Shown in pieces: positions 15,001-63,067 of a stretch of DNA of 64,000 nucleotides. Within the stretch, counting starts at the first letter, position 1; every line of letters starts with the position of its first letter. Position numbers and translations under genes: made by a program. The DNA lies in the NCBI RefSeq assembly GCF_964204865.1, contig NC_135254.1:10230001-10294000 (forward strand), in the 5' to 3' direction. The notes beneath the pieces are model-generated. The model did not search any database and was not told the DNA's origin. It saw only the letters and a list, made by a program, of their open reading frames with translations. The DNA comes from Styela clava (taxonomy: Eukaryota).

Positions 15001-15094
15001 AAGCTTTGGATATAGATGTGGGTCAAAATTTCCGGGATATTACACAAATGTTGCAAGATACATTCCTTGGATTAAATCAAAAACTGAAGCATAA
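57..15094 (+). CDS. Bf: Complement factor B/C2-like gene A, 5'-truncated by the window edge (vWA C-terminal part + trypsin-like serine protease, 520 aa visible)
   Basis: Eleven exons with GT-AG introns join in frame: 57-201, 421-564, 864-937, 1310-1469, 1828-1973, 5784-5913, 7103-7236, 7531-7723, 9448-9592, 12617-12764, 14951-15094 (TAA). vWA motifs SGTATAYAL and IFLFTDG. Protease motifs ECGQ, AWPWQ, LTAAHV, HDIAL, RPICLPCT...C..EEELL (Bf/C2-type insertion), [25 protein letters not shown]. Exon-for-exon paralogue of gene B. Confidence 0.92.
2540..2922. repeat. Dispersed repeat copy, inverted partner of 5257-5650
   Basis: About 370 bp matches the reverse complement of 5257-5625 along its length (e.g. 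GGATGCAAGCATGAAACTTGGCACACATGTACAGTAGCATC; GACCAAACACGATTATTAGTCGCACAACCTGAAC). It ends in the CTTGGTGCACATACTCCTGGAG terminus, which resembles those of the MITEs at 45031 and 61054. Confidence 0.8.
3435..3757 (-). mobile_element. tRNA-derived SINE
   Basis: Minus strand has a tRNA-like head with pol III B-box GGTTCGAATCCC (3696-3685), a GC-richer body and an (ATCCT)n tail. A related, internally deleted copy lies at 59340-59527. Confidence 0.75.
5257..5650. repeat. Dispersed repeat copy, inverted partner of 2540-2922
   Basis: Reverse-complement match to 2540-2908 within the same intron of gene A. Confidence 0.8.
6180..6860. repeat. Foldback-like element with degenerate CACGTGTCC-type minisatellite arms in inverted orientation
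   Basis: 6180-6350 has short units such as TCTCACTTGTACCACATGTTCC and TCTCACGTGTCCCAC. 6760-6858 has the complementary GGTGAGACACGTGGAACAAGTGTGAC units. Confidence 0.5.
7967..9441 (+). mobile_element. Helentron/DINE-1-like non-autonomous element (family H1) with a nested copy (8028-8264) and an internal ~360-bp tandem repeat
   Basis: Family termini are 5' TTATTG(G/A)ACACGT.GTGGACATA and 3' GTGT(C/T)CATATATTTGAGCAT.GCTCTCTTGTT: subterminal inverted GGACACGT/ACGTGTCC, a 3' GAGC..GCTC hairpin and a T-rich end. It has a (TTG)n microsatellite and is homologous to 43028-43468 and 17116-18352. Confidence 0.7.
8602..9373. repeat. Tandem repeat, units of about 357-368 bp, about 2.1 copies
   Basis: C(C/T)GTGTTTTTGTCTGTTTGATTGCTGTGATG..GCTTTGTTTATA recurs at 8602, 8959 and 9327, and the intervening sequence is near-identical. 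Confidence 0.9.
10191..12560. mobile_element. Non-autonomous DNA transposon with ~335-bp terminal inverted repeats
   Basis: 10191-10524 (TAGACCTTATTCATTAAAAACCCATCCTACGCGCAAAAAG...) is the reverse complement of 12228-12560 (...CTTTTTGCGCGTAGGATGGGTTTTTAATGAATAAGGTCTA). No transposase ORF was seen. Confidence 0.85.
10734..11129. mobile_element. hAT-like MITE nested in the long-TIR element
   Basis: TIRs CAGGGCTGGATTTA ... TAAATCCAGCCCTG; the target-site duplication is only partial (GTGA..). Confidence 0.7.
13462..13535. mobile_element. Tc1/mariner-type mini-MITE
   Basis: TAGGGTGACCCAAAAACGGAA ... TTCCGTTTTTTTTGGGTCACCCTG, flanked by TA on both sides. Confidence 0.7.
13567..13890. mobile_element. 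hAT-type MITE
   Basis: Imperfect TIRs TAGCGTTACCATA ... TATGGTGAGCTTA with a perfect 8-bp TSD CCGATAGG (13559-13566 and 13891-13898). Confidence 0.8.
14625..14810. mobile_element. Mutator-like MITE
   Basis: TIRs GGTTCCATTACATTTGAACCCA ... TGGGTTCAAATGTACGGTCACC with a perfect 9-bp TSD CGGTAGTAC (14616-14624 and 14811-14819) and an internal TAACCCTAACCC motif. Confidence 0.75.
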
Positions 15095-27500: not shown

Positions 27501-30500
27501 CAAAGTAGCATCTAGTTCTCGTATAACCCCTAAAACAGGCTGCAGATGCACTTCCAAAAAAGACAGGCGTTGCGAGAAATGAACAGATCAATTTCATTGT
27601 TATGTCATAAATGATGCCAGGCCCAATATCTGAATAACTGTACACAGCGGTGCATACATGCGTACAAAATTAGAGTTTTTGAAAATTACCATACCGGCCC
27701 GAAAATCAACATTTTGAATATGAGCGATCGCAGCCCGCCCTGACTGTCCAACTGACGGTACATTATAATAATTTAGTTATTGTTAGATTAATTTAAGGCC
27801 GGTTTTATCAATTTTTATCACTGATATGTTAGCATTTTAGCCTCCGCGTGGCGGGTCACAAATAAAACGCGGTGGGTCACTTTGTGACCCGCGGATCAGT
27901 GGTTCGCCATCCCTGCTATATAGTATAGTACTACAGTATATCTTATTTAATAAGTAATCACCAAAAGTCTTCTAAATTATACGGAATCGAATTCCCTAAA
28001 ATGGCCTTTATCTGCCAACATACATTCAGTCGACGGGCTATCTAATTCTTCGATATAGAACACAATTTATTTTTTTGTAAAAAGAAGTCGGATGCGATAA
28101 TAAAGCTTTTTCAAAATTTTTTCTTGATTTCATATTTTTCAATTGGGTCATCAACTTCTGGCGACCTTTGAACTAGAAAAAAAGAAAGTAGACTGAGCGC
28201 TTCATAGATAATTATTTTAAAATAATTCTAGACATGATTACTATACCGTACAAGTATTTTAGAATATTTTCTAATTTCTACTACGATTTTTATTCTAAGT
28301 TGTATACGAATTGACAAGTCACAGTTGTTTAATGTGTACAAAAATAACTATGCTACTTCTTCGTATACTTAAATAACTTTTCAGATATTGAGTGTGGCGA
28401 GGCATCCTTTGTAGAATATGCCAGCATTAATTATACTGGATCGTCAATACGTAAAGTTGCCAGGTATTCTTGTGATTACGGCTATTACATGGCATATGGA
28501 TCTCCTTCTCTTTACTGTTCCGGATCAGGATTATGGATTGGAAATGAGCCTATTTGCATGCGTATGTATAGTTACAACGTTCATTCTATCAAATGACAAT
28601 ATAAAAAACATAAAAAGTAATCTAATAAAAAATATAAAATTATTTGTTAATAAATTCGAGCGCGATTCATTTTTTTGATGAATCTATGTTATTCCCGTTA
28701 CAGGAAACTTACCCTTATGATAGATAATTCATCTTTAATGCACAGTTATTATTTTACAATCATTCAAATATATATTTAGAAGTTTTAAAATGCTCCCAAA
28801 GTCGAATTATTTTCATATTTAAGCTGTACAATGTGGTGATCCTAGTACGAGTATACAGGAGACCAGGGGATCAATCAGATATTACGGTGGAACAGATGTT
28901 GGTTCAGTAATGAAATTCCGATGTCATGGAAATGATAAAATGCTTGGAGCAGAACATAGAACTTGTTTAGGAAATGGTAAATGGAGTGGACCACTGACAA
29001 TTTGTGATACACGAGGTAAAGAAAAAATTGTATGCAGTATTCATTCAAAAAGGCCAGGGTCGCGACTTGTTACAAAACATGATATACACTGTAAACAAAC
29101 ATAAATACATGTAAATGTAATCGAATCATTTACATTGTTACTAACTTTAAATGTAGCTATGTACTTGAAGGCCATTTAATTGAGTATAAATAAATTAAAT
29201 ATTGCAGATAAAGAACTTCGGTGCCCTCATCCCGGAGTTCCAATAAACGGTAGACTTATAGGAGATGATTTTTCAATCGACTCCACAGTCAGATTCGGCT
29301 GTGATCGCGGTTATGTTTTATACGGAGATCAAGAACAAACATGTTTATGGATAAAAGAATGGTCTGGAGCTGGCATAGCTCCTACCTGCGTCGGTAACAT
29401 TTATTATGTTGATACACCCTGCACGTCTGCTTAGCAAATGTCATATCTATTGCAACTCATGCATATTCATATTATTTTAACGAAAAATATCTAAGTTTGA
29501 AAGGCTAGTTCAGGATGGCTGATCAAATCTGTGTCATAATAATAATCTTATGTAACAAAAGAAATACTGTGTTTCATTTTCATTCACGAATCTCAAAGGG
29601 TAATTTTTATAGCAGAATTTTTTCCATTTTGGTTTCATCATTATAGATCCTCGGTATCCACATACTGCCGACGACGTGATGGGATCTTTGACAAGATCGT
29701 TAGCCAATCTTCCTGATCAACAAACAAGTCTTGGGCGATCTATCAGCGACGATATAACTGAAGGACAAGAAATTTACCTCGTGTTCGATGTTTCAGAAAG
29801 CGTCTTGAGCCGAACGAAAGATTTCGAATATCAAATGGAATTTGCAAAACGACTTGTTAAACGAGTAAATCAGATTTGGGTTGAAATAAATTCTAATCTA
29901 AATTATATTAACAAAATTTAGCATTTTCAGTGTATTTCGATCTAAAACTAAGAAAATAACTCTGAGTCATTGTAATCAGTAATGTGGCTTTTCATGTACA
30001 TTTTCATTATATTTATTGTGATTCTATTTTCATCACATTTGCTTTGATTTTCAATTCAGATGGACGGATTCAAAGGAAATATAATGTTTGGAATAATGGT
30101 TTTTGCCTCATCAAATGTCACGGTACTCGATATTACTAAAATGGGAAATGAACGGAGGAATACAACATACATATTAGAAACACTAGACAAACTCTACGCA
30201 GAAGGTACTTATATCAATATATGGAAATATCGATATCAGTAGATTGGGTTTTTTTAAAAATTTCGATTTATATATATATTTATAGTTTTTGAATAGATCT
30301 GGGCCTAAGGCATTAAATTTGCTACAAAATTTTTAACCTGGCTTTTTCTTTCTACAAATGTGGAATCTGAAATGTTAAAAAAAGTTCTCAATTTTTAAAA
30401 ACCAATATTTTTACTTTTCAGCCACCAACAACAAATACAAAGAAAGAACAAAATCTGGAACAGCAACTGCCCATGCGCTATCAAAACTCAGAGGTGTTAT

Positions 30501-33500
30501 GTCATTTATGAGACAGGACAAAGAAAATGCTAATAATAAAAGACATTGTTTTATTTTTACCGACGGTAATGCAGTATGTTGAATCAATATTAATTTAATG
30601 ATTTTTTGTATCAGTAAAAATACAGTTGGAAAAATAATCATTAAATAAATTTTCAATGAAAACATACCCATGGTATTTTTGTATTTTGCAGGTAAACATA
30701 CGGAAGGAACTGATCCCGTTGAATTACGAAATAACATAGAATCTGAATTCCAACCGAATATTGAGGTATCATTAAGGTCTACAGCAGTAGTCGGCAAATT
30801 TCATGTACTACTGGGCAAATGTACAAACCGACGGCAGAGAGCGAACCGCAATAATTCCCACTTATAAATAAATGCTGCAATAAACTTCAAGTTATGACGC
30901 AACCGTCACATCCTTTTCTGTGGTATTAGAATTAACAGTAAGCACGTTCTGCAAGTAAACGTCATACAACCGATGTGCTTTTGCTCAAGTTAATTACTAA
31001 AAAACAAACGCCGTTAAACAGCCGTGATTAGGAACACACATACACACAAGTTTTCTTAAATTATATTGAAACCTAATCAGATTTAACAACAAACTACTCA
31101 CTTAAAACCTACTCTTTGTTGGAATTACAATTCAAGAGGTGGTTTGAGTATCTATGTGTTAACATCTGATATGTTCGAAGTGATTTTTCGTTAGATAAAC
31201 GTTTTTCTCTTTCGATTAATAGAAATCCTAGCTTCGAAACGGTGTCTTATTTCGTTTTTTCCAGTTTTACAGCATAACAGCATGTCATGATTGTAATGAT
31301 GTTAACAGTCAAACAGAATTAGTTGGACTCTCGTCAAAAAATGGAGACAACTATATTTATATAAAAGATTACTATCAACTTTCAAGTTATCTTGATAAAG
31401 TCACGGATGTAAAATTGGGTAAAAATTAATTTATTATTTTTCCAGTTAATTTCAGATTAGTCAGTCAGTCAGTTCATTTAAAAAAAAAAATGTTATCAAC
31501 AGGAGGTCCGTACAGTACATGTTTCTGGCACGATTTAAATTTTACAGAGGTTACTAATAAGTTTTTTGGATTTAATTGTAATAGTAGTGCTTTAACATAA
31601 GTTCATTTGACTTTTTTTTTTTAAATATTGGCCAATATTATATTCCGGATGCCGGGGTATCTCTAATTATCTTGCTTTGATATAATTCAGGTAACGCGGC
31701 TAATTATTTGTTTGAAAATTATAATTTCACAGATTTTGCAAAATGTGGCCAAGCTGGCAACGTTAAAAGCATAAAGCAACAAGCTAGTTTAGCAAGATCA
31801 ATAGGCAGTGAACAGGCGGCCGAAAATGCCTGGCCCTGGCAAGCTTTGATTACTAAAAAATTACGAACACAGGAGAAGGTGAGATAAGAATTGTACTGGA
31901 AGATATTGTGCATATGTATTTAATTAGCAATTAACAAACGCCATTGCGTAGTCACCTGTATAAATGTTGAAATAAAGATAACAATAAAACAAGGGGTCGT
32001 GGTTATGCAAAGATAATGAATATCATGATTAATCCATGAATTTCTCTTCTATCAAAAATATGCACGCATGCAAGTTTTAACACGCGCATAAAAGTTGTGA
32101 TTAAGATTTTGCGTTCGGCTAACCAATTCACGTCTGTGATTGGTGTCTCTGAACCTTTGGGTTATCAAGGTTAAGGCTTTAGTTTGAAATTCGCTTGTAA
32201 AATTTAAATTGATATTAATATTCTAACTTTCTGCAAGATCTCTTAATCGGTTGATACTATTTCTTTTTATTTACTTTTATTTATTAAGACATTGCAGAAA
32301 GGAATGTTGGGCGGAGGTTCAATTTTGAATGGAAACTGGATACTAACGGCAGCCCACTTACTTGGTATGCAATCGCATATCCATAATTGGTTGGAGGCTT
32401 ATGTGATATCTGTTGGTAAGATATTCAAACCTGTAACCTAACTCATGTGAATTGTACCTTGTTGCTTAGATCGGAAACCTAAATATTTGAATGTCAGATT
32501 TATCATTTATTTTATTTAATGCTGGTCGCCTACCGCTACTCCTGTATTGTGATTTGTATTGCTAAGGTATTTCACTTTGATGCAAAAATCTCAGAAAAAA
32601 CGAGTAATTTCAGATTATAACATCGAATTAAAATAGCCAATAGAAACTGATTCAAATTGTTTCAGGATTATATTTAAAATATTTTAGTGTACAATTACTT
32701 TTCATTTCTTCTGCCTAAATCTCCTGAAACAACTAGAAAATTGGCTTGTGTTTTTCATTTAATCTTAATGCATTTCATTTTATATATATGCATTTTTTGC
32801 GATGTAGTATATCAGTAGATTATATACATATAGAAATATTATTAAAACTAAACGTGTGGACAAAATGCCGAACAAATTTAATCAATCTATGAATCAATTC
32901 GTCATAGCTACCTAAATAAATGCTAAGTAAACAAGCGGGCAATGCACCGATAGATAATCCTGTCACAATCAATTGTTTAGCATTCAGTCGTTATAATTAT
33001 TCAACACTAAATCCACGTGGTGTAAGTATCACACCAATTCAACATTTAAAATAGATTAGAATAGTAGCCCAAGTAAAATCGATTCTTTCTCAAATAAACC
33101 AACAGCAGCAATGATTTAGCAAAACGAAATGTATTTTTGTTATTGGATTCCAATGTCCAGTAATGAAATTCTCACAATTTCAAAAAATGGCGCTGATTTT
33201 GGTGCAACAGGTTGACACGTGGTAACACGAAAATTCATTTGAAAAGGTTTTCAGCAATAACAACGTCTTCTATACTCGATTTTATATCGATCCAAAAGCG
33301 ATTCTTATCCACGTAAAATATCAAAAAAGATCAGTTAGGTTTAAACTCATTTTTTGTCTATAAACCTATACATAATTATACAATATATATCATTCAGGTA
33401 TATTCAATCGACTGACTGATGGAATGCATAGAATTAAATCTACTATCAAAATGTATGGAATTGCCGAGTACATTCCCCACGAAGGATATGTTGGCGGGGA

Positions 33501-36500
33501 AAATTTTGAACACGACATCGCTTTAGTAAGAGATCGCTTGGTGTTATGAAGACTATAAATTATGTGTTCAGTTATCAATGAACCATTAAAGTAATAAGTA
33601 ATGGCACTACTTTTTTGAGATTCATAAAAAGTGTTTAGAAAAAAACGTGGTCCGTTAACTCGGAATATGTCGAAATCTAGTATAAAGTCGACTTGATGAT
33701 GTCTCGAGAAAATCGTAGATAAAAATTTCATGAATGGGAGTAGTCTCAATAAAAATTTCTATAAGTTAAAATAGTTCACTTTCCAGATGAAAATCGGATT
33801 CGAGTTTAATTCAAAAATGGAGCCCACAGGTGTCAATCAGTTAACATTTGGATACTATATTCGTCCCATATGTCTCCCTTGCACTGGAACATGCTTGAAA
33901 AAAGAACAATTGGTCGATGACAATGGAGTACCATTGATAAACGATGAAATGAGCGCAGAACAGAAATGTTTGAAAGAAGGTTTCACTTTTTTTGGGGGGG
34001 GATTATTTAATTATCAATGCGCCGAGTAAATCAATCCTTTTTGGCTTAGTGTTGTAATAAAATGAATATTTAAGTCAACGGTGCGAGTTTTGTAAAAATT
34101 GAACTACATAAAACATTACCGTTATCATAATCTGTATTATTTGATTGATACAATATTAATATAATTTATTTTTTAAATCACTGCCAATCAAAATTGAGAT
34201 TTTAAATTGCTAGTTAGAAATTTGAATCTGGTAAAAAGAATTTGATCGTTGTTTGGATAACTGTTCATGTAATATGTATAATAGAGGAACTACTACATGA
34301 TAATAACGCAAAAGTTGTCGCAACCGGATTTGGAAATATGAAACAGAGTGATACTTCAATAAAAGAGGAAGACTTGAACTTATCACAAAAACTACTACAA
34401 GCTTTGCTACAGATACAAAATAGAAGCATGTTAGTAATACCTTTTTTAAATGAATGTGTTATTCAACGTCCGAGCGATCAAAGGTTTGTACTTACGTCAA
34501 CGAAATTGTGTGCATTGTCTCGGTGAGGATGTCATGGTTTTGAGTGTTTGTCACGGTTTTCAATAACTAATATAACTAGAATTCGGTTGGAAACCGATGA
34601 CTTATCGATCGAAGGTTAGGGGATCCCCCAAAACAGTGGTCTTACTCTATAGTGACACCGTGTGTCCCATCACTAATTAAAAAATAACTCACTAATCATA
34701 CGACATAATCCATCCAAAATCAATAGGCTTCTGATCCGAGCTAAGATGAATGCACATGCAAAATTTGGAGCAGATTGAACCTCGCTTTCGTGAGATATCG
34801 CGTGCATCTAACACACAGACATATAGACAGACAAATAACTATCAACATACTTACCGATCAAGATCGATAAGTAACAATGGGGACCATAAAAGCCAACATT
34901 GTGAGTCATTCCTGTAGACTCATAGCACAGCAGGTATCTAAAAAAAATCAATCTTATGTAGTACCCTAGTACGCATATTATAATAAACTCGATTTACATA
35001 AATTCTATCCACTTCACTTCCCGTAAAACATAATTTACAATTCTTATCACCGCATCTACAGCATCACTATGCATTATATATCGCTGGACTTCAAAACTGG
35101 AGTTCGTCATTCACCAGATCGTTTTGGATGATTTGCTCACTTTGTACAAATGACCCCTTTGAATAAGGATTCCTGCAATATATTAGTGCTTTATATGTTT
35201 CTCGATTAATGCGGAAGATTGTAGAAACCAAAGCGCTCTGATTTAATGGGGTATTTTGATATTGTACATTTTGTGCAAAGTTTTGATGTTTTAGGTTAAT
35301 TAATTATTTCAAAGTTTGAGGTTCAAATTATTATCTCAATTAGGATTTCTTTTTTAACGTTGTATTTCATTCAGTACGAGAGAAACATTAAAACTTGATT
35401 TTGTATTATTTCAAGCTAAACTGAAAAATTGTTTTCGGAATAGACGTTTTCTGGATTTTTCTCGAGTAGACCTGAAACAATTGGTACACCCTTTCCGTTC
35501 AACAAAATGTTATGTCGCAGTGTTACGGATATTGTAAGCCTAATATCCACTCCTCAAGCGCAAAAAAGACGACTATAGATTGAAATTTTTTATCAGAGAC
35601 TAAACGATAAAATTTATTGTTTGTGGAGGAGACCTAATTGTTTGGTCATTCTTCTCGCATCTGATAAATGATTTATGATAAACAAACAAAAACATTTAAA
35701 AATTATTATTTAATATGGTCAGAAAAATGTCGACAATACTCTAAACGAATTCATTTCGATATTTTAAATTGTACAAAACGTCCGATCAAATATTCAGCTA
35801 TCATGGACTGTTTTTGTATTGTATCTTCTTATAACAGACAATAAAATAAAAGATTTGAAAAGCGTCTAATTTTAACTTGATTTTAACTTGAGTTTTTGCA
35901 TAATGAAAAGGGGTTCTGCAGACCTCAATCATTTTGCATATATTTCAGATGTGAAGAGATGGGAGAAGAGATGCGGAGAAAGGTAAATTCAACCACCTAC
36001 AATCTAGACAAAATGTTTTGCTGCAAGTCTGGAAACAGAAATAGAAAAACTGATGCTTGCCAGGGAGATAGCGGCGGACCTGTTGTGCGAGAGGTAGGCA
36101 AGTTATTTTCATAATAGGCTACACTGGGTATTCAAATATTGTTGGCAATGAAGTCACATCTATGACAGAGATACAACAATATTCAGATAACAATGTTCAG
36201 TTGTATGCGCGGCGATGGAAATTGAAACGCGTATGTGTAAGTTTTTAGATTTTAGACATTTGTCATAAGTAACAAAACGCTTTCGCGAGAAATCATAACC
36301 TAATAAAATGAGCTTAATCATCAGCAAAACACCAAAGGGCAGGATAACAATATTTCTCGTGGACTGGAAAAAATACTACGCGGACCCAACCGTTGATCTA
36401 TATTCTATATAATCACTAGTGAAGGTCTATGTCAAATTTCACAAGGTCATTTCTCCTCTGATTCAACGCTACAACTTTCCGGAAATATCGTTGATTAATG

Positions 36501-37178
36501 ATAATAAACCAGTAAAACTAAAAGTGATCCTAATGTTGAAAAAGCTGATGTATCCTTATTTTCGTCACGGTTTACCGAAAACTCATTTAAGACTTGGCAT
36601 TATAAAAAACGATCAAGGAAACAAATCATAAATTACCCGGCTTTTAAGTAGAAACATAGATAAGGACCAAATAAAATTGTTCCTGGGGTCAGTTTCGAAG
36701 TGCTGACGACGCGGAAGAGAAACTTAAACACAATAGATTGGGTTATAACAATTATGTTACAACAATTAAGTGTACAAATAATTTTTAAAAAGGTTGTTGT
36801 TATTGCTGTTGAGTAGTCTGATGTTGTCGTAAGTTAAAAATATCGCTTTTTGTATCCAACGGGCGAATCGATTTCAAACTTTTATTACCTAAACATGATA
36901 ATACCTAAAAGATGAAGAATTACCAGAAGGCCCATCTTTTTTTTCATATTTCTTCTGAATAAACCAAGTTTTGATGTTTCTGATATTTCACTACTAAACC
37001 ATTCACAGTACCAAATGTTCATATTGCATTCCAGGTAAAAAATGTTAAAACCGGAACTTCATGTTGGGTTCAGATAGGCATAGTAAGCTTTGGATATGGA
37101 TGCGGGTCAAAGTATCCGGGATATTACACAAATGTTGCAAGATACATTCCTTGGATTCAGACAAATATTGGAGTTTAG
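21584..37178 (+). CDS. Bf: Complement factor B/C2-like gene B (signal-LDLa-WAP-CCP-CCP-WAP-CCP-CCP-CCP-vWA-serine protease, about 1082 aa)
   Basis: Twenty-one exons join in frame (3249 nt): 21584-21635 (signal MLTICLSLLCVFLFIEHG), 24482-24610 (LDLa), 24958-25110 (WAP-like), 25968-26201 and 26750-26968 (CCP), 27276-27419 (WAP-like), 28385-28561, 28824-29015, 29208-29393 (CCP), 29647-29864 (linker SLGR-SI, MIDAS DVSES), 30060-30204, 30422-30565, 30692-30765, 31265-31418 (vWA), 31733-31878, 32289-32415 (TAAHL), 33398-33525 (HDIAL), 33787-33979, 34285-34429, 35949-36093 (DACQGDSGGP), 37035-37178 (TAG). The first exon is the least certain. Confidence 0.92.
22190..23040 (+). mobile_element. Deleted hAT element with transposase remnant
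   Basis: TIRs CAGGGGTCACCAACC ... GGTTGGTGACTCCTG, perfect 8-bp TSD ATTTAGAG, and an internal SLFGSTYLCKSDFYYMNFIKNKH*THLTNEHMQDSLR dimerisation-domain relic. Confidence 0.85.
34574..34874. mobile_element. Helentron/DINE-1-like element (family H2)
   Basis: GACTTATCGATCGAAGGTTAGGGG near the start, ACAG microsatellite, and terminal hairpin TACTTACCGATCAAGATCGATAAGTA; homologous to 61934-62526. Confidence 0.65.
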
Positions 37179-42119: not shown

Positions 42120-42727
42120 TCAGACACAATTCATAACCGACGATACAGAAGTATAGAATCCAGGCTGTTTATTTCCACATCCCCATCCCCAACTGACTAT
42201 TCCAACTTGCATCCAGTGTCTTGAATGCTGAATTCCAAACTGTATTGGATGATTGGTGTATACAGAAATAAATTAGGTGGTCACGAATTGTAAATATAAA
42301 TTATTATGCTGACTTTTGTTGTGAACATGTCGCCAATCGATCTCAATGTTGTAGTGACCAGTGAAGGTTAAATCCAGTAGGAGGCAATGTTTGGTCTGTC
42401 AAGGAAGATATATCTAATCGTATATTTGAGCTTTGCTCTCTTGTTATATATACAAAAACTGAATTGAAAAAAATATATCAATACCCGTAAAAAAGAAAAC
42501 ACTGGAAAATATAAAGTTACTGTCATATTACAGCTTTTTATATAACATAGTGCTTTAATTAATATTGCACAGACCCGTTTCACAAGTGGTCCTCCACTAT
42601 CTCCTTCGCAGGCATCAACGTTTTTGGATTTATCAGCACTTTTAGCGCAAGTCATCCTTATCACTCTTGTCATTTTTCTGGATTAAATAATTGTAATTAC
42701 TAATAATTAATCACGCGGTAGATGCAT
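42120..42727 (-). pseudogene. Orphan serine-protease C-terminal exon pair (relic of a fourth paralogue, or alternative 3' exons of gene C)
   Basis: Exon 42727/42677-42575 encodes MTCAKSADKSKNVDACEGDSGGPLVKR and has a GT donor at the same position as in genes A-C. Exon 42239-42120 follows a CAG acceptor and encodes [39 protein letters not shown]. From the homologous acceptor at 42727 the frame is shifted and hits TAG. No upstream exons were recognised. Confidence 0.75.
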
Positions 42728-49540: not shown

Positions 49541-52500
49541 TTAATCCGACTTCTTTTTATCATGATCTTCCATTGTGTTCGTAACCCATGACATCAATGA
49601 TGTTACATCTGTGTAGAAGCCGGGATAAAAATAATTTTTTTGATTGATCTTTGTTTGCTGACCACAACCATAACCCCAACTCACAATACCCACTTGTACA
49701 AAACAGCTTTCTTTTGTAAAATCATCTCGAATCTATAACAAAATAGACTTTCAATAGAATATATATAAATTTGCAACTGTTTATATAGTTAAAACAACAA
49801 AATAATGTTGTCCCATATGGCCATGGAAATACGACATATTCCAAAGCCTCTATTTTGTTTGCTAGTCGAGGGCAATTATAAGAATAACTCATATATATAT
49901 AAGTTATATGTTGTTCTCGAGCTGGAACGTAATCATATCCCCCCCATTAAAACTAAGTTCAATAGGTATCCAATCATAGGCCAAGGTAAAAACAAATATA
50001 TTTATAAAAACAAAACAAAAAAAGTTGAATTTGTAGGCTTTAACAAACCGTTTGTGAGACGTAACAATTATTCTTGCATAGATGCTTTCATGCATGTTAC
50101 CTACTCATATTTCTTCTTCAAGAATATCAGCGGTAGCATCTCAATTTAAAACACGTTTGAGTATGTTACTCCAAACATATACCAACCTCTCGCACTATTG
50201 GTCCACCACTGTCTCCTTTGCATGTGTCGATAATTTTCCCTCCGTTTTCTCCGCCCCCAACTGCACAAAACATCTGGTCTGTGAAAATGTGTTTAAATCC
50301 AGATATATTCTTTCGTCGAGTTATTAGTTTGACCGCTCTCGCGCACCTGTAAAACATAACTTCCGTGTTTCACTTTATTCACGCCATGTAGCCTACGTGG
50401 TACTGAGCAATAACTCCGGGGATGCGGGTAGCGGTGTCATCCCATCTGCAATCAGGGTATGAGAAGTTTTTTTTGTATTTGTCTGTTTAGTCGGTACTTT
50501 GCTATTTTTCGTCCTCATTCAGGTTCTCTTGAATAGGGAAGTCATTTTGCAGGCTGTTAATTGATTGCTTATTTTGAACTACAAATCTTCTGCCATTTTT
50601 CTTCCCCTACTTGGGAGGTAAATTTTATTTCTTTGAGGCAAATCAAATATAAGATAGTTCGGTATCTAAACCTTCAAGAAACTAACTACTAGTGTGAGTG
50701 TGATAATGACTCATGGGGTCTTGTGTTATTAAAACGATATCCAGACTCACTCTTCTCTTTTAGTCACATTTAACAATGCTTGTTGTAATTCTCGTGTTGC
50801 TTTCAAACCAAAACCATAGTCCTCGTCTTTCCTGGTTGCATTATATCCGAATCCAGTAGCAACAACTGCTACCACAGAATCAGAGTTTTTTCCCATTAAA
50901 ACGTCATCTGAGTAGAAATCACGTGTGCAATTTATAACCTTATATGGTTAAGGATGACATTCTTACATTTCAGTTTTTACGACGAGTAGTAAATTTGTGA
51001 TGCGATAATCGAAGTTTGTTGAGCGTATATAGCAGTTATAGCAAATATGCAGTATTTTTCAACTCTTATTATTTAATAAGACAATTTCATGTTTCAATTC
51101 CGAACAGGTCTTTCAAAAGCTTGCACTGATAAACAATCAGCTATTATTTTGTGAAACTGGAATTTTGCGGTTCGGCCTTTTATGCGCCGGTTATTTCAAC
51201 CTGGATGAAGCCCAGGTAATATTCAACCTGCGATGGAAAACAATTAGTATCAAAAGTTCTAACCTAAGAATTAGGTTATTTGCTTGTTGTGCTATACGCA
51301 GGTGTTTCAACCTGATTATAGAATTGGTATATGTAATGTTTTGTCTTTCACGTAACGAGGTGAGGGGTTTCTGATCTTCAACCTGGGTACGCCCCTGACA
51401 ACACGGGATTGCTGTTGTGAAAATATTGTATTCTGCGCAACTAGTTCACCAATCAATTTCGAATGTTCAGTACCTCAAGATAAAAGAAGGCGATTTATAT
51501 TGGTCGATTTTGTATTCTTATTTTTGCGAGGCATTTTACTTATATTTTTGAAAAAATACGACTATGGCTTTTGTATCAGTAGGTCAGGCCAGTCCGAAAT
51601 CTTTAGACAAACCCAGTGTTTAGCTAACGTCTAACAGTACCGATGTGATTTGATGCGCTTATGAGCATTTATTTGTACTTTTGATTTTTGAAACATTTGA
51701 ATAATTAGAATTTGTGTAAATAGTATATGCATGCTGCTATTGTATTATGCATTCTATGTTCATATATTAGACAAATCCTCTCATGTTTATTGAATATTGT
51801 GCCGAATAAACAATTGTTCGAACATAAATGAGCCAGGGAAAACATTTACCTAACGTGCATTAATGACACCTGCATAGAAACTTACATTCAATTTTACACT
51901 TTTCTTCGTCTGTTTCCTCTCCTTTTATTAAAACTTTTCCTCTGCTATCTTTCTTCATCAACACTTGGCTGACACAACTATCCGGACTGCATGGCAGACA
52001 GACAGGTCTTATAAAAGGAGTGAATTCAACATATCCTGGTAAGGAGTCTGGCATTAGCATACGTTTCCCATCTTTTGATAAAACAAATTCTCCACCAAGT
52101 TTAATCTGTTGGAAACAGAAAAGAGTTGATTTTTTACGATGCAACTATCGGAAGGAATAAAATATTTATATGCAATAAAGCAATTTTATGTCTCCTTACC
52201 AGTGCAATGTCGTTTTGATAAGATCCAGGTAAATATTTGCCGTTATAATCTGCATACTTATCATGAATGTAAATCTGTTCTGGTTGAAACATTTTCACCG
52301 AAGCTTCCAAAATGTTGTATCTGTTCGGTCTTCTGGTGATGCCTTGATTTCAGTGAATGAAGTTGTAATGAAGTAAAGATATGATTACAGTTTGGATGAA
52401 AATTTTGAAAAGACGATTCAGCTTCGTAAGTAAAACAGACAAGAGAGCGATGCTAAAATACATAGACACAAATCTCGAGGATCATAAAAATAAATAGCAA

Positions 52501-55500
52501 AATCACAGGTGAAATAAAACCAAAGTCATATTTTTTTAGTTACTTCTACTATTGTCTAGTAATGAAGATTGAAATTGATTTGCTCAGTAGCTTGGAATCT
52601 GAAAAAGGCAATTTTTACAACAAAAATACCTATAAAATCAATTTACCGGAACTATCGGAAGGGCCGCATAGTGTTAAAAACGCACATTATTGCAGTAATT
52701 CTAAGGTAACTTACACAGTCTCAAGGATAGCAAAAGAATCTTACTCGCCATATCCAAAAACGCCACTCGAATTTCAGGAGTATTTAAAAAAATCAAATTT
52801 ACCAAGCGAAACCATAATTCCTTGTTCCCAGTTCAATCCACTGTATGCCTCAAACACATGCGCAGCAGATAAAACCCATTTGCTATTAATTAAACTTCCT
52901 CCTCCCATAACCTGGTCAAATGCCTGGGAAAGTAGAAGATAAATATGATTTTCAGTTGAGATATTGAAATATTCAGCTATCAGAGTATATCATATATAAT
53001 TCTATATTGACACAACATTTTTAATATTAGATCAAATCATAAATGTGCTTTGAAGCATCATTTTATTTCCTGCGGTCAATTAAATTAAAATATCAAAGAA
53101 GATAGAATAAGAACTAGAATTCGGTAAAGTTATATTTATGGATTTTTCAAATATATATAAATATATATGAATATCACAGAAACATGTCTAATTTGAATAT
53201 TACCACCAAATTTTCTTCTTTGTCGAAACAATATAAACGGAAAATTGTTGCCTACAAGTCTGACGTCAAGAGGCATGAATTTATTTCCATGTTTCTTCAA
53301 TAATTTTTATATAAACACAATAACAATACATTCAATTAACCAAACCAAACCATTTAACAAAAAACATTTGTACATACATCCAGGAGAATTTTATTGTAAG
53401 ATGTGATGAGTGCCTGCCAAGGCCATGCACGTTCGGCCGCTCTTTCGCCACCGAGTATTCGTCCTCCCGGGGACAGATTTCTCACACTCCCAACATAGCC
53501 TGCTTGTCCACAACTATTGTAATCTGCCGAATATAATAGCGTATTAATTGCATTATTTTTACTCGATTAGCTTATTTAATCACTTGTCATTTCATACAGT
53601 AGATAGGTGTCGCATGTATCAGTGTCTGAAAAGGTAGGCAACAGTAGTAGAAGACTAAAAAGATAGGTATCACAAGTATCAGTGACTAATTATGGCTGTC
53701 CATTTAATTAATAACTGAGCTTTACTGCTGCGTGTTTAGCACTGTCGTGAATTCAATAGATATTTGTTACAAAAAGAATTTTATTTACAGATGAACGAAG
53801 AAACAATACAATACCCTGTCATTGATGTTAAATACGTACCTATGTGCCCGTTTGCATTAAACGAAGTTGTATTTAAACGAAACTGATGACGTTACTAAAT
53901 ACAATGGGATACAAAAACTTTTTATTACATTATAATAGTACGGTATGTAAATATAAGTGTTCCGAAATAATGCTGTTGGATTGCACAATATATTTTAACC
54001 CAGGCGAATTCTGATGTAGAGGGAAAAACGCAAATTTTATAAAAATGCAATATCGAGAAAGCGTGCATGGAATCAGTTATGCATACAACGTTGATGGATA
54101 CCTAAATCAGTGTTATTCAACTGGGAATACTATATACCAAGTCAGATCCCGGGTACACAAAATACAAATGGTATACGATGGTTTACAGGTATGGCATGGG
54201 TCGAATATACTCTATACTACACTCAGTTTTGTGTTTTTGAAACAGACGCAGTTCGCATTTGTGAAAAAATGACGGAGAAATACACAGAAAATGCTTGGCA
54301 AGGTTATTCGCAAATTACTACGTTATATGTCAAATTAGAGCACATAATATCTTTTGGCCATGTATTTGAACATTGAGGTATTTAATGACTTAACCTAGCA
54401 TTTTTTTTCTACTTTATTTTATTAATTAATCTTTGTAATTTGTAGGGTATACGAAGTAAACAAAAATCTCAAGACAGCTGGCTATACCACGTAATAAAAA
54501 GTTGAAGACTGATCTAAATATCTATATTAACCAATTACAACGCAAAAAGTTATCTGAAACTTTTGAAAAACGAAAAATGAAAAGCGATATAATTGCTATA
54601 AGCATATAAAAGCATATAAAGATAAAAACGTGAAAAAGTTTAGTGATACCAAACATCAGATAAAGGCATATTTTAAACCAAGTAAGCATGAAAAACACTG
54701 CATAACATATAAACAAGTTGGAAAGCAGTAAAATTGTATTTTGACATTTTTTTTGCTTTCTTCCGATTGTTTTGTCCAGGTTTCTTACCCGCCGATTTGC
54801 GGCGGTGGCAGTACAGCGAATTCGACATTACAGGACACTTATTTTTTTCTCTTCATAATTCACCTCTGTTAAAGAAAAGTACTAAACAGTTCCTTTTTTC
54901 TGTTGGCTAAGAGTGCGAGCCATTGATACAATTCCATTTCAAATTTTCTAAAAAAACCGTGTAGTTTGTACATTCCTGTGCCACAAAAAGATTTCTGGAT
55001 ATCCACTTACATGGTGTTTACCAAGTTCCATGAATTGTACTGCGTCATGTTTCTTGCATTCCGTTTGCCCTTTAAGAATAAGATTTGCTCTTTCACTGTC
55101 ATTATTCGTTCATGGTGTTTTATTATTCATTTTAATCATTGGTAGCCTGACTTTGGTTTTGAAGAGGAAAAAATTTGCCTTTTCAGATAATGCGAAATAT
55201 CCAAAGATATTTCATTGCAGTAATTTTTTAATTCATCTTGCTTGATCGCGTATTCAGCCTCAGTATTAGAATTTTTCATTCCAATTATCCGTTTTTCTAT
55301 AGAATTTCTCTGAGCAATAATAACACTTTTGACATTCATTAAATAGTTTGACAAATTTTGTTTGAGATGGTCTGAATCCGATGCCTACCTTTTATTCATT
55401 TACTACTGATACCTACCTTTTTAGTCACTGATACCTTTGATATCTACCTTTTTAGTGACTGAATCTACTACTGATACCCACCTTTTTAGGTATTTACTAC

Positions 55501-58500
55501 AGATACCTACTTACCTACTGTTTTAGTCAATGATACATGTGATACCTATCCTTTTAGTCATCTACTACAGATACCTATTTGGCACCCACCAACAAACACC
55601 TATCATTAGCCAAACTTTATAACTTCATTCACATTATTACTAATTTTATTTTTATCATACCTTCTTCAACGTCTGTAATTTGATTAACGTATTTGTGTAA
55701 TTTATAAAAATCTTCAACATAAATAAAATTTTCGTGCTTCGACGCAATTTGTTGGAGCTCCTCCCTGACTTCTGAACTGCTTTCCTGTGCGGAGGATGTG
55801 ATGCTGTAAAACTAGAAAACATCAAAGTAAAACTAAGAAATAGAACAATCCTACTATTGATACACCATTACATACCTCTGGTGGGTTGTAAGCATATTTT
55901 ATTTCTATTATTTTTCTGGCTTTACTTGGACTTCCTCCTGCATTTTTCGCGCCTGGTAAATAAACAATATTCTTAGCTGTAATAATAAGAGAAAATAATA
56001 TGACCTACATCTCTATTTTAAGTTTACTGATATTTCTAAATAGGTATGTGGTTTCTGTTATATAACTTATATTGGTGTAATACTAAATATAGCTTGACGA
56101 TTATCGCATATTTATTTAAACGAATTGTCGAAATAGTTTTTATGAAAAGTTTTTCCGTTTTTAAGTTTGTTTCTTACTATATTCAGAAAAAATATATAAC
56201 AAAAGCAAAATCACTAATTACAGAAAAATGTTTTTGTATCCACAACAATTTTGCAACTCTCTCTTGTAAAACACATGAAATGATACTGTTATCAACAACC
56301 CATAAATAGAACATATGAATGGTGGCTTATGGAATATGGATGCAATATATTGGAAAAACAGAATTCAAACTATCCTGTTGACAAATATAGATGAGACTTC
56401 AGTTTAATTTAAACTCGTGAACGCCCGGTAAAACCATGTTTCCCTTTCCAAAACATTACCGTCTGTTAAAACAAGGCAGTGTCTCTTAATAATCATATCC
56501 TTATCATTTTCGTATGAAAACGCAATCATTTGTTCGTCAAGTAATTCTATCGCCGATTGGATATCTGTTCCCTGCATAATAGTTTTCTTTATATTTTCTA
56601 AAATAAAATACAAACAAAAATGAAATGAAAAATATGTAATCTGAACAAATGAATTAGGTAAATGTTCTCCATAAGTAACAACAATTTGATTTTTTTGTCA
56701 TAAAAATGTTATACTGTTTCGTCCTTTAATCGAACCAGTCAGCAGGAACGGATTTCGAAGAGATGATGGGGATGATAAACAGCTTGTTTGTTAGAAATAT
56801 AGTCTCAAATGATGGAGATGCCAAAGAAGTACAGCAAAAAAAACACTTTTTATTTTTTCTGTTACTTCATCAAATGTCACCCCCGAAATAAATAATATAT
56901 ATCCTTAGTATATCAGTTATTTATCAATGGTTTATTTTTCGAGATGAAAGTATTGCCTAAGAAGAGATAAATCCGTTGAATTATTTTCATTAAACATTCA
57001 ATGAGTTACATTGAATATCTTGTATCAGCCATACATATAGATATTGTACTGTATCTTACCGCGATCTTTTTCTATCTCATTCAGTAGAGTAATCACCTCT
57101 TCGGCAGTCTTTCTTGGTTCATTATTAATATTTAGTTTAATCATTGGTTTCGTTGCAAATACAATAATCCCATAGTTAACTCGACCAGTTGTGTCGTTTT
57201 GGCTTAACTATAGATAGTGGAAACAAAGTTATTGATCACGAAGTAAAATTTGTTTTGCAAAATGTTTTTTTTGTTGTTGTTTTTGAGAAAGACGCTTTTC
57301 TGCTACTAATGAAAAGGTCAAATTTTTATTAAAAAAATATGGAAGTACTTTTGGGAAAATTATTGCTTTTTTAATTGCATCGAAATCCTACATGGAACAA
57401 GATATTTCAAAAATAGTTTAACCATTTCATTTTAATTCATTGGAATACTCTATATGACGCATGAGAACACTTGCTAACACCGCGTACATATGTCTCCGGG
57501 CACCGCTCTCTTTTTTTATAAATATTTTTGATAATTCAGACAAAAATTTAAAGTAGCCCTAAAGTCACTTACCCTTTTAACGAGACTTTTGGCAAAGCCC
57601 ATGGTGTTTCTCAAGGCACCCGGGCCAACACTCAAAGATAAGTCGATAACAAAATACACTTCTATTCTACCTCGAGAATTTAGTTTGATTGTTCTTCCCG
57701 AGCTAGAAAATTTTTCAGTTTGTCTGATGTTTGATGTGCTTTGAGACAATTTATTGATGACATCTGTTGGCAAATCACTGTACTTTGGATCTAAAAATAT
57801 ATTAATCAAAGTAGTATATTTGTGATTACGGAATTGAAATGTATTTTCTTACCTACGCAATCAGGCGCGCCATCACCACTCCATTCTTTAACAAAGAGAC
57901 ATTTTTGCTTTCTTTCTCCGACTAAAACAAGGCCATCCTGGCATGAAAATTCGACTTTTGCTCCAACAACGAAATCATAATCTCCTGCGAATCCTTTCAT
58001 GTAACCACCAATTGGAATGCCGGGATGTGGACAACGTTCCAGGTTTCCTTTGAAATAAATACTGCGTGATCATTTATCTAAAAAAATCTAATATTCAAAA
58101 ATTTAACATACAAGTAGAGTGAAAATGTTGTTTTCTCACATTTCAAGTCAATAAAAGTTCAGGTAGGTATCATACTTATTCATAGCAAACGTAAACCAAA
58201 ATATACGAAAATAAATATGGCGTTTCTAATCAACGTGCCAACAATTTCCATCGATTAGAACACCCGTCCGTTCAAAATTTCAATCGATTTCAATTTTAAC
58301 ATAGTCTGATTGAATATTTCTGAAATATTACATACTATTACCTATGTTATCACACACTGTGTTGACGCCGCTCCATTTTCCATCTCCCATGCATGTTCGG
58401 ATTTCAGAACCCAACAGTCTTTGATCAGATCCACATGCAAACATCAACGTTGCGTTGTAGTAATATGCAGTAGTGTGTTCATAATTAAGGACGCGTCCAC

Positions 58501-61500
58501 CCATCTTTGATATAGCTGGTACTGGATCTTGACATGTTACACCTATAAACATCTTATTTTTAGTCCCTTTACCAAATCTCCTTATACTGAATTGTCTACT
58601 CACAATATCGCAATGTTATTTCTCGATGTTTAAGATGAATTTATCTTGCTGTGTATATGCAGAATTAAGCAAAGCTGGCGACTCCATATCACAGAAAGTG
58701 CTACGAAAAAATTTAATCTTTCATTTTTGACAAAATTACATACACGATGGAAACGAACAAAACTCACGCTTGCATTGTATCAGTTTTCCTCCCCATTTTC
58801 CACTCCCTGTGCACTTTCTAGAAACATCCCCCGCTGCAGTATATGTTCCCTCGTTACAAATATAATGAGCCACGCGTTCAAATCCTTCCCCGGTGTATTC
58901 GATGAATGAGTTTTCAGCAGGTGGTGCATCACCACATTCTATCTCTGTTGAATAGTTTAAAAAAATACCTTAAACAATTGCCTAAAAGTATATTAGTACC
59001 AATTGACAAGACAAAATTTAAAAATATATTTTGTGATATATTTGGATTCACATAGTACCGCCCGCGTGTAACGCGGTCAAATAATAGAAGCATCTATTAA
59101 AAAATATAACTCACTCAAGTCGACGCATGTTCTTCCACAGGGGTCGTCACACTGGCAAGTTTTCCCTGCAGCACAATCTCCATCTGTTATACAATCTAAA
59201 CCGCACGATAACTCGTATTCTTTGATCTTGTCTTCTTCTTTCATAGGACAAGATCCTGTTTAGTATATAATTTAAATTAGTGCGAGTTGATTTGAATTCA
59301 TGTTCAAATACGTTAAATGAATATTTAAATCAAGAAGATGCACGGTGTGACGCATCGTGCTGAGCGTTAGTAATACGCTTGCACAGCCTGGGAAAATTAC
59401 GTGCGGAAAGATTACTAGACTCTTCGTATTGTTCACGTGACCAATGGATTGGCAATTGGGCGAGAGGCCGTGATTCGTCATATGACTAAGCCGTCTTGCC
59501 GGCTTTCCCAACCATGGGATAAATATCGGAAGCTCATAGTAGCAGAAGCGTTGGAGTTCTATTTTACAAAGTTATCCCAACGCTGTCGCATGGTTGTTTT
59601 CGTGTATTATCAATTTCGTCTTATCGGGGGCAAAGCAAAAATAGACAAATAATTAATTTCAAGTCGATTTCAAAAAAATACTGTATTATGGTATAAATTC
59701 AGGTCAGGAAATTAGTACATCAGATACCTAAGCTTGTTCAAAAACTATATCTCAAAAATATGAACCGACAACAAAGTTCAATGTATTTTTGATCAAATCA
59801 AAATAACAATATCAAATAGGAGCTGCAACAATAATAATAACATGTACCTACTTGTGCATAAAATCTCTTTTGTCCACGTTTTATTTTCCCCTCTCGCTCT
59901 TCCGTGACAAAATCTAACATTACTAGGAACCGCGAGATACCCCGGTTCGCAGGTATGATAAGCCCGGACATCGTATTTATATGGTCCTACTGCATCTTCG
60001 AGCTTGTTTGTGTGGCGACTTCGACGCACATACCGGATATGACGTAGATTTGGAATCATTTCAAGTGGAGGACATGTTCTTACTGAATATAAATATTGAA
60101 CACGAATAGGGATCAAGTTAGTGCAAAGGGAAAGAAAATGGACATTTTTTATTTATGTAATCAAACGTATACAAAACAAATAATTCGAATAATTTTGAAT
60201 TTTGCAAAAAAGTAAACAAGTAGAGTGTTTATATTAAATATAGCATACGACTTAATGGCAGGAAAATAGCTTTGCAAAAGACAAAAATTTCCTTCATATT
60301 CAAATAATTTAAATACGTACAAATGGCAACGCAAGACATTCCACATTCATGATCGCAAACACATTTCTTCTTCTCAATTTTGGAGCAATCTTGTCCTTTT
60401 TTACATTTCTTTTTACAATCTTTATTGATTCTGCATTTTTTTCGACATGCTGGTCTTCCAACAAGTGCCGCTTTTTCCAAGTTAGCTTTACATTTCTTCG
60501 GACCTAATTAGAAGTGAATTTAATATATAATAAATAAATGACACTTCGTGTGACGCTTACGATCTGTTGATTCATTTTATTCGGCCAACAAGGCCAAGCG
60601 AAGAAATTTCTAATTTTTAATGTCCTCAGCATACCATTAAGTTCACGAGATTAACCATCATATACATCAAATGAATAACTGAATGACAATAGAAATTGCT
60701 TCAGGCTAGCGATTTTTCAAACCTAAGTTCAAACTATATGCATTATATTAGCCGGATATTATTATTGCAAAAACTCATTAGCTTTCAGTAGTTGAAAACT
60801 TAAAATTAAAACACACAATTATTAGTTGATAATAGTGGTTCAAATTGAATACCCGTAAATCAAAATTATAAAAAATTAAAGTCTCATTTAAAAAAAAAAA
60901 AATGAAACCCAAGCAAAAATAAACTAAGGTGAAATAGTTGGTTTCAATCGGAGAGTTTGCAAGAAGAAAAGAACTCTTGTTTTGTACCAAACTCGGCAAT
61001 CATACGATTAAATATGTTTCCGTAAAGCCATATAAAATACACATTAAGAGGTACTCCTGAGGTATGCGTACCAAGATGTCGCATAACCTGAACCTTAATC
61101 TGGTACACAACCTGAGTTCAGGTTGTGCGCTATCTTGGTGGGCATACTTCAGGAGGTCCCATTAAGGAATAGACATATTGATTCGATTGTGCTAACAGCC
61201 CGATCATAGTTCTGTTTATCTCATGTAGCCTTTTCAACATGATCCACGTTACTTGTGTAACTATTTGATGATATGAATAAAATATTATTACTTTCTGATT
61301 GATGATCGACATGAACAGGCAGTTTTTATATGTTTTAGTATCTTGCTAATACAATACACCATTCGTTGTAAATCTTACATTTTGCAAATTCATAACTTTC
61401 ATCTTCGTCGTGCAGGCAATCACTATAATCGTCACACATGTAATCCCTGCTGATGCAAACTTGACCACTTTCTTTGTGACAATGAAATTTACCAATGGCT

Positions 61501-63067
61501 GAGCAGTTGGTGCCTTGAAACAATGCAACAATAATCGTTAAATTTGCCGAAGGCTGCATAGTTCATTGCAATATATTTGTAGAACGATAATAAATCACAA
61601 AATCAAAACAATTTCTCTGAATATATCTAGAAACTCGCGATTATACGATCAAATTATCCCGAAGACGTGTTTCAGTATCAAAGAGGATTAGAATCATTAG
61701 AGAACTAATGTACAAGAATAATAATATTTCAATATATCTATTTTGTTATTAAATTAAATATTTTTATAATTGCATGACGTTTTGTAGATATTGCTCCAAT
61801 TCTGTGACTATTTGTGATTTTTATTTTCAGGTCATAAATATAACATTTCTTTTTGGTTTTGCTGATAAGTATTGCGACCTAATATAATCAGATAAAATAA
61901 ATGAATAACAACAAATGAATTAGTTAAACAAAAAACGAGAATATCGGTCAGAGACCAAAGACTTATCGATCGAAAGTTAGGGGATACCCTAAAACAGAAA
62001 TTGCGATTTCGATTCGGAAAATTTTGCAAACCAGAACTGGATTGTTTCGATTAGTTTTCAGCCAATATCAAAAAGGTAGGAAACAATAGCCAACTCCCCA
62101 CGTCGTCGTCGAAATAATACTCGATGAAATACTTTTATGAAGAATTCTGCAATCCGAACTGGATTGTTTCGATCTCGCGGCGTGTCTCACTAGCGTGAAA
62201 ACTTGCGCATCGCACACAAACACACATTCAGCGCGTCTCAAAAATCTCTCGCTTTGTAAAAACGTTCTCTCGATTTGCAAAAATCCAGATCTCTTCATCA
62301 CTAATTAATGAATAACTCGCTAATTATACCACATTCATATAATTCATACCACAATTCATCCAAAATCAACAGGCTTCTGATCCGAGATATGATGAATGCA
62401 CATGCAAAATTTGAAGCAGATTTAACCTCGCGTTCGTGAGGTATCGCGTGCATCTAACAGACAGACAAACAAACAAACAGATAAATACCTATCAACATAC
62501 TTACCGATCTTATAATCGTTAAGTAATGATTGAGGTTCTGTTATTGCTGTCCCATGAAGTTATCGTGTTGTCTATTATCAATAATTTCATGTATATTGTT
62601 ATTAATTTTGAATTTCATCATTTTAATTTACGACTAGTTTTGTAGGTTAACATAATATATCACACAATATGTTTACACATAAACTTACATTCAGCAAACC
62701 ATTCAGTTTCATCCTCTCCATTAGCGCAGTCAAATCTTCCGTCGCATTTCAATTCATTCGGAATACAAGCTCCATCCCAGAAGCATTTAAACTCTGAAAA
62801 TTCACTGCAAATCTGACCTGTAGGTAATGGATAATTTCTGACGAATTTTAACTACAAAAAGGTTCAAACTATTAATATTAAAACCAAACTAAAAAACAAT
62901 TTGCTTTAGATAAAAAGACATGCTGTATTTTTAGGAAAAGAGTTGTTTAATTCTGTCCCTAATTCAACAAGTAAAAGTTTATGATATTGTATGAAATTTC
63001 ACTTACCTTGAACATTTTGTTGGATAAAAAGTATAACAACAAGGATAAGATTATATCCTAATATCAT
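49541..63067 (-). CDS. Bf: Complement factor B/C2-like gene C (signal-LDLa-LDLa-WAP-CCP-WAP-CCP-CCP-CCP-vWA-serine protease, about 1107 aa)
   Basis: Twenty-one minus-strand exons join in frame (3324 nt): 63067-63007 (signal [21 protein letters not shown]), 62817-62689 and 61513-61379 (LDLa), 60503-60321 (WAP-like), 60082-59852 (CCP), 59255-59115 (WAP-like), 58944-58768, 58542-58342, 58047-57853 (CCP), 57790-57573 (SSGR-TI, MIDAS DLSLS), 57207-57060, 56597-56460, 55952-55876, 55811-55661 (vWA), 53523-53378 (GGR-ILGG), 52923-52803 (SAAHV), 52342-52200 (NDIAL), 52105-51886, 50907-50751, 50346-50187 ([10 protein letters not shown]), 49732-49541 (TAA). Confidence 0.92.
53598..55580 (-). mobile_element. 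Mutator (MULE)/foldback-like element relic in a gene C intron
   Basis: Arms built of GATACCTAC/TTTTAGTCA-type repeats lie in inverted orientation (53598-53690 versus 55380-55580). An internal broken minus-strand frame has [18 protein letters not shown] and [14 protein letters not shown], resembling MULE transposase motifs. Confidence 0.6.
59340..59527 (+). mobile_element. Degenerate, internally deleted copy of the same SINE family
   Basis: GCTGAGCGTTAGTAATACGCT matches the SINE head. GAGAGGCCGTGATTCGTCATATG..AAGCCGTCTTGCCGGCTTTCC..GGGATAAATAT matches its 3' body. Confidence 0.65.
61054..61155. mobile_element. 102-bp palindromic mini-MITE
   Basis: CTCCTGAGGTATGCGTACCAAGATGTCGCATAACCTGAAC ... 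GTTCAGGTTGTGCGCTATCTTGGTGGGCATACTTCAGGAG, with ~40-bp imperfect arms. Confidence 0.75.
61934..62526. mobile_element. Helentron/DINE-1-like element (family H2), longer copy
   Basis: Shares its start (GACTTATCGATCGAAAGTTAGGGG) and last ~170 bp (CATCCAAAATCAA.AGGCTTCTGATCCGAG...ACAGACAGAC...CAACATACTTACCGATC) with 34574-34874. Confidence 0.65.

Follow-up and report, generated by a model that had tools for sequence, protein, structure and literature searches.

Factor B genes of the window

The window analysed here, a 64,000-nucleotide stretch of the Styela clava genome (G000:C5:10230001-10294000), is a complement factor B (Bf) gene cluster holding three genes that we call A, B and C (Table 1). 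A Pfam scan of their annotated proteins (P0001 for A; P0006, which is gene B in another annotation; P0008 for C) returned LDLa, Sushi, vWA and trypsin domains in each, and together with the exon map it places all three in the ascidian-type order of LDLa, CCP, vWA and trypsin-like domains. All have a MIDAS of the form DxSxS (DVSES in A) and an Arg site ahead of the vWA domain, hereafter the pre-vWA site (SLGR-FI in A; hyphens in motifs mark the cut junction). The activation exon of gene A is a 100% match to P0001, which is named complement factor B-like of Styela clava. P0009, a further annotation of gene C, reads GGR-IRGG, with Arg17 in place of Leu17, and reflects an allele or an assembly error. 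As the activation exons of A, B and C are paralogous and occupy the same position in complete LDLa-CCP-vWA-protease genes, their likeness is not due to chance.

Table 1. Features of the factor B cluster, in window positions
Feature	Position	Strand	Details
Gene A, vWA and protease exons	405..15091	+	5' part upstream of the window, from G000:C5:10221979; Arg156, His143
Gene A activation exon	1828..1973	+	Cys1, Arg15-Ser16-Thr-Gly-Gly; SLGR-STGG
Gene B, complete factor B-like gene	21584..37175	+	
Gene B pre-vWA site	29727..29747		SLGR-SI
Gene B MIDAS	29787..29801		DVSES
Gene B activation exon	31733..31878	+	Cys1, Arg15-Ser16-Ile-Gly-Ser; SLAR-SIGS
Orphan last two protease exons	42123..42682	-	Between B and C; DACEGDSGG exon and terminal exon
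Gene C, complete factor B-like gene	49544..63067	-	2 LDLa, CCPs, vWA, trypsin-type protease; 1098 aa model
Gene C last exon	49583..49780		
Gene C Gly226 motif	49610..49624		
Gene C Asp189-Ser195 motif	50202..50228		
Gene C Asp102 motif	52203..52217		
Gene C His57 motif	52858..52869		
Gene C activation exon	53378..53523	-	Cys1 (CG), Arg15-Ile16-Leu-Gly-Gly; GGR-ILGG; protease domain start; bordered by AG and GT; 100% match to P0008
Gene C GRILGG	53447..53464		
Gene C MIDAS	57630..57644		DLSLS
Gene C pre-vWA site	57687..57704	-	SSGR-TI, equivalent of the factor D site

The fourth GDSGG of the window, at 42604, belongs to the orphan exon pair and not to gene C, which has its own last exon. The orphan exons share 70-85% DNA identity with the terminal parts of CCP-protease genes around G000:C5:10345400-10346500 and 10365500-10366300, and a fragment similar to the pair lies near G000:C5:10297900-10298400.

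Exon translation, with the protease domains numbered by alignment to a thrombin row, confirmed the three protease-domain starts of Table 1 as the initial annotation had read them, along with the CG cysteine, the catalytic triad and Asp189 in all three genes; Asp194, Gly216 and Gly226 are intact too. One site had been misplaced, since the SLGR-SI proposed as the junction of gene B that activated C might cut is the pre-vWA site of that gene. Gene C combines Arg15-Ile16, Asp194, Cys1 with Cys122 and an intact triad, which supports reading it as a conventional two-chain zymogen. In A and B the hydrophobic residue 16 is replaced by a serine. The claim that only C is canonical holds within the window and fails in the genome, where three more vWA-protease genes within 200 kb read R-V(L/I)GG. 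As shown below, the initial annotation was right in its observation and largely backwards in its framing.

When the activation exon and the first vWA exon were used as queries and the matching regions were mapped, at least 11 Styela vWA-protease genes that include an activation exon came to light. Seven of them encode Ser16 (A, B, C5:10309427, C5:13063642, C5:13079821, C16:3757967 and C16:3803340), with the codon TCA in every one, and four have Ile or Val16 (C, C5:10470833, C5:10439136 and C5:10372618). The gene expansion as such is already published, with 17 factor B genes counted in S. clava (PMC7540406). The same regions contain many CCP-protease genes without a vWA match, and those that were read have a hydrophobic residue 16. 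Arrays of such genes with Bf-like protease domains, at G000:C5:10335000-10430000 and 20160000-20240000, are candidate activators or vWA-less relatives of Bf. P0004, a Ser16 paralogue at G000:C16:3789427-3807600, is annotated with two tandem CCP-vWA modules before a single protease domain, and both modules lack an Arg site ahead of the vWA domain.

Ancestry of the Ser16 state

Among 37 named non-Styela homologues with vWA and protease domains, 33 have Ile or Val16 and none has Ser16; the sample favours members retaining the site and under-represents mammalian-type Bf/C2 because the query was a trypsin-like domain. The hydrophobic residue is present in all nine tunicate proteins (Halocynthia, six of Clavelina, Phallusia and Ciona savignyi), which leaves nothing special about gene C, in 15 of 18 from other invertebrates and in 9 of 10 from vertebrates, both lampreys included; Apostichopus, Sinanodonta, Liolophura and the shark P0287 differ. 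Not included in the count were five tunicate rows without a vWA match (P0193, P0195, P0198, P0119 and P0141), the misaligned row P0194, Owenia P0278 (whose vWA domain apparently lies after its protease), a second tick isoform, three unnamed Logan rows and two reference proteases. Exons of other tunicates were also sought in metagenome contigs, where the 12 loci obtained were all generic trypsin-like with Ile or Val16. Among the papers listed by full-text searches, none dealt with residue 16 of Bf in tunicates or other invertebrates; the first descriptions of Bf from Halocynthia, Ciona and lamprey may already mention the canonical site.

A quick IQ-TREE search on the vWA and protease domains of 40 rows, with SH-aLRT support and a midpoint root used for drawing only, grouped A, B and C with known tunicate Bf (SH-aLRT 100). 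All six Ser16 proteins that the tree includes cluster together (100), with Halocynthia Bf and its R-VVGG junction as their sister (98), and the gene C group joins Clavelina and Ciona savignyi (98), so that the lineage of C parted from that of A and B before Halocynthia diverged. With a single Styela clade of Ser16 proteins, a sister that reads R-VVGG and no serine among the 37 homologues, Ser16 is derived. As far as these sequences tell, it arose once, after the split from Halocynthia (S. clava being the sole styelid compared), and gene C retains the Arg15-Ile16 switch that invertebrate factor B had ancestrally. It is thus not gene C that is unusual, as had been supposed: its Ile16 is the family default.

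The nearest point of comparison is Halocynthia roretzi Bf (AAK00631.1, P0011), which is 43-45% identical to A and has the same LDLa-CCP-vWA-protease layout, MIDAS and Asp189/Gly226 as A and B. It differs from them in its R-VVGG junction, whereas the Styela sister clade reads R-S(T/I)G(G/S) and has expanded to seven genes. Among solved structures, the best sequence match of gene B is human Bf (PDB 2ok5; E 3e-31), and like C2 of jawed vertebrates it shares with A and B the CCP-vWA-protease order, a pre-vWA Arg site and the absence of a hydrophobic residue 16. However, the Arg15-Ile16 segment is missing from human Bf, which is shorter by about 14 residues from Cys1 to Pro28 and has Asn189/Asp226 (in NTCRGDS and ARDFH), whereas A and B retain the segment, Arg15, the full spacing to Pro28 and Asp189/Gly226. 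Neither the jawed-vertebrate segment loss (Arg15 and full spacing stand in 7/7 clade members) nor the jawed-vertebrate S1 pocket, with Asp226 and no Asp189, is found in them. Of the suggestion that A and B are Bf-like or weakly active, weak activity is still predicted for the free enzymes, but likeness to Bf in the vertebrate sense does not hold.

Nor do all vertebrate Bf/C2 dispense with residue 16, as had been assumed. Lamprey Bf reads RAR-IAGG, with Asp189, and a second jawed-vertebrate Bf/C2-like lineage retains R-(V/I)x(G/R)G, Asp189 and Gly226. This lineage comprises P0221, P0224, P0230, P0228, P0238, P0243 and P0270, from sharks, a ray, teleosts, a caecilian and a turtle; six of these rows were in the tree and cluster together (99), and the three rows of cartilaginous fish lack an Arg site ahead of the vWA domain. 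Taken together, the comparison suggests an ancestral Bf that was an ordinary zymogen cut at two sites, with several later losses of residue 16, in jawed-vertebrate Bf/C2, in the Styela clade and in single sea-cucumber, bivalve and chiton proteins.

Transcripts and selection in the Ser16 clade

Contigs of X1, X2 and X9, from three studies, show the activation exon of gene A joined to both neighbouring exons, with zero to one differences and GT..AG borders. The activation exon of gene B has no differences in X1 and X9 and is spliced to the next exon, its 3' border matching a GT..AG joint, and the protease exons of B are joined in X1 and X9 contigs (two studies). The three runs are not on record as RNA and were taken as such by guess; their contigs are spliced. 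Among the splice joints listed, none belongs to gene C, and X1 holds 0.23 of the words of the gene C stretch 52700-53600, about the exon share; contig depth cannot rank the expression of A, B and C. Spliced CT..AC joints were also seen in X1, X2 and X9 at window positions 45887-47801 (minus strand), a repeat-rich stretch without a Bf exon match that is possibly a multi-copy or non-coding transcript.

Selection was estimated as Nei-Gojobori dN/dS over the protease exons. The value is 0.33 for A versus B, 0.33-0.47 over the 10 Ser16-clade pairs that retain Ser195, and 0.40 for gene C and its nearest paralogue. Deeper canonical pairs, which are partly saturated, gave 0.13-0.29, and their lower values could reflect relaxed selection in the Ser16 clade. 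Arg15, Ser16, Gly18 and Asp194 are unchanged in all seven members, across which 34 of 83 fourfold sites and 145 of 314 columns of the protease domain show no change. Taken by itself, the constancy of Ser16 lacks significance, with a neutral chance of about 0.17, while that of Arg15, Ser16 and Gly18 together has one of about 0.005, a rough figure for sites picked after looking. Eleven other clade-specific columns revealed no obvious compensating change around the Ile16 pocket.

The clade also contains damaged members. Ser195 and Asp189 are lost in two of the seven (NACAGDT and GACRGDD; L005 at G000:C5:13063642 and L008 at 13079821), which are the two with RLRR-S and RSRR-S junctions. RxRR is a furin-type motif, and its occurrence in these two members makes the junction look cleavable. 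Since L008 lacks Cys1 also, release of its protease-like domain is conceivable. In this assembly, the upstream exons of a third member carry stop codons, and its residue 226 is Glu; two members have lost the Arg ahead of the vWA domain. It is the clade of A and B, derived, apparently expressed and still constrained, with a seemingly cleavable Arg15-Ser16 junction, that is the new point here, rather than gene C.

A proposed zymogen-like enzyme dependent on C3b

From the sequences and their ancestry, the intact triad and S1 pocket, the splicing of A and B and the purifying selection, we infer a mechanism for these enzymes. An Arg-specific protease would cut ahead of the vWA domain and at Arg15, after which the protease domain would be held by the Cys1-Cys122 disulfide. 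In C, the new Ile16 would insert and pair with Asp194, yielding a conventional enzyme. In A and B, the Ser16 amine would still reach Asp194, but with the hydrophobic anchor missing, free activity would fall by orders of magnitude, and binding to C3b through Mg2+ and the MIDAS, together with substrate, would restore it at the target surface. We tentatively favour, with slightly more doubt than belief, the view that A and B are still cut at Arg15-Ser16 and are zymogen-like proteases that would work well only when bound to C3b. Such a route to cofactor dependence would be independent of that taken by jawed-vertebrate Bf and would go through a different structural change.

Engineered coagulation proteases illustrate what such a residue may do. 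Like A and B, thrombin I16T and factor Xa I16L combine a cleavable Arg15, a poor residue 16 and an intact triad with, in their case, low free activity and rescue by a cofactor (PMC6889508). In thrombin I16T, the N-terminus still inserts towards Asp194 and the oxyanion hole is lost; activity on fibrinogen and PAR1 decreases about 1000-fold, and only 30-fold with thrombomodulin (PMC6889508). Factor Xa I16L is cited in the same paper as almost fully rescued by cofactor Va. The authors chose Thr16 because side chains of this polar type were "not documented" in trypsin-like proteases (PMC6889508). Unlike A and B, these variants are engineered, carry Thr or Leu rather than Ser and respond to other cofactors, and rescue by C3b is a conjecture for Styela. 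AlphaFold2 models of the protease domains from residue 16 did not discriminate between the two states or between the readings weighed here (pLDDT of the first ten residues 76 for A and 79 for C), their alignments containing many Ile/Val16 rows, and a Foldseek search with the gene A model returned thrombin chains only, a weak result because thrombins were in the alignment.

With two Ser16 paralogues lacking Ser195, drift towards pseudoproteases is a real rival. The clade would be turning into non-catalytic decoys or regulators that bind C3b through their vWA and CCP domains, Ser16 being the first disabling step. The losses of Ser195 and Asp189, the upstream stop codons of one member and the missing pre-vWA Arg of two fit such a course, as do the dN/dS of 0.70 between the two Ser195-less members, the excess of clade values over those of deep canonical pairs and the cost of a polar residue 16 in thrombin. 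However, triad, Asp189 and Asp194 are intact in 5/7 members across dS up to 0.72, and A and B themselves have lost no triad residue. Moreover, the loss of Ser195 is not peculiar to Ser16, as the canonical-site paralogue G000:C5:10372618 has undergone it too (1/4 canonical versus 2/7 Ser16 genes). We consider drift unlikely as an account of the clade.

Alternatively, A and B could act as single chains, needing no cut at the junction, with the active site ordered by an internal salt bridge or by substrate, as in desmoteplase, tPA and human Bb. Desmoteplase, the plasminogen activator of the vampire bat, naturally carries His15-Ser16-Thr17 and depends strongly on a cofactor (PMC6637190), and gene A has Ser16-Thr17 together with Arg156. 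The activated C2/Bf of the horseshoe crab gives C-terminal fragments of 70-74 kDa that look uncut at the protease domain, with no mention of a smaller protease chain (PMC3351276); whether those blots were run under reducing conditions is unclear. The second cut may consequently not occur even in invertebrate Bf, a point that also speaks against the favoured mechanism. Against a single-chain enzyme, desmoteplase, a member of a different family, has become uncleavable through His15, a lysine replacing the N-terminus, whereas Arg15 persists in 7/7 clade members, and the shortened segment and Asn189/Asp226 of human Bf are absent from A and B. Residue 156 is Arg in only three of the seven, Gln in two and Leu in two, B included, and a basic residue is often seen there among canonical Bf proteins (Clavelina, Ciona savignyi, Phallusia and Acropora), so that Arg156 is not diagnostic of a tPA-like rescue. 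Single-chain action seems to us distinctly unlikely.

Finally, it is highly improbable that gene C is a dedicated upstream activator, a stand-in for factor D that would process A and B as first suggested: it has a canonical switch and a predicted Arg-specific pocket, and Arg stands at P1 of all candidate sites in A and B, but C possesses its own MIDAS, CCPs and pre-vWA site like an ordinary Bf, its switch marks no activator role because all nine tunicate Bf of other species have it, its lineage has been apart from that of A and B since before Halocynthia diverged, and no test sets it above three or more further canonical Bf paralogues, the numerous CCP-protease genes around it or the MASPs that ascidians are reported to have.

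An anaphylatoxin-domain search located two C3-family loci in Styela, on C19 and C5, with the predicted anaphylatoxin cuts SFLR-SV (C19) and ETQR-SS (C5), read across the next intron and placed by analogy to vertebrate C3. The thioester motif GCGEQ is present at the C5 locus and was not found in 20 kb of the C19 locus. The stretch G000:C19:11601000-11612300 (L061, L072 and L073) shows anaphylatoxin and A2M matches and extra RxKR sites. The Arg-Ser pair at P1-P1', common to the A/B junction and the predicted C3 cuts, makes self-cleavage by the convertase thinkable; being two residues only, it is weak evidence of it. That Styela independently evolved a cofactor-gated C3 convertase through the single substitution of Ile/Val16 by Ser, which could cut its own junction and amplify without factor D, strikes us as improbable. 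A convergence of the two cut sites of A and B on one motif is not specific to them: in a likeness score over 32 rows, B is highest (21), A reaches 16 and C16a 10, while canonical Glandiceps, Phallusia and Asterias score 17-19. A copying of the pre-vWA site into the protease site is not supported, given several synonymous differences and the TCA codon of Ser16 versus TCT/TTC in the pre-vWA site.

The way in which invertebrates activate factor B, with no factor D known in them, is described as an open question (PMC3351276, PMC4714745). As both states of residue 16 occur in close Styela paralogues, its role in a C3 convertase can be tested by a one-residue swap. For protease chemistry, the clade would offer a natural enzyme with a cleavable Arg15-Ser16 junction. 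If Styela did evolve such a cofactor-gated convertase, improbable as we hold it to be, the Ser16 enzymes would be a living model of the step from the two-cut ancestral factor B to the vertebrate kind.
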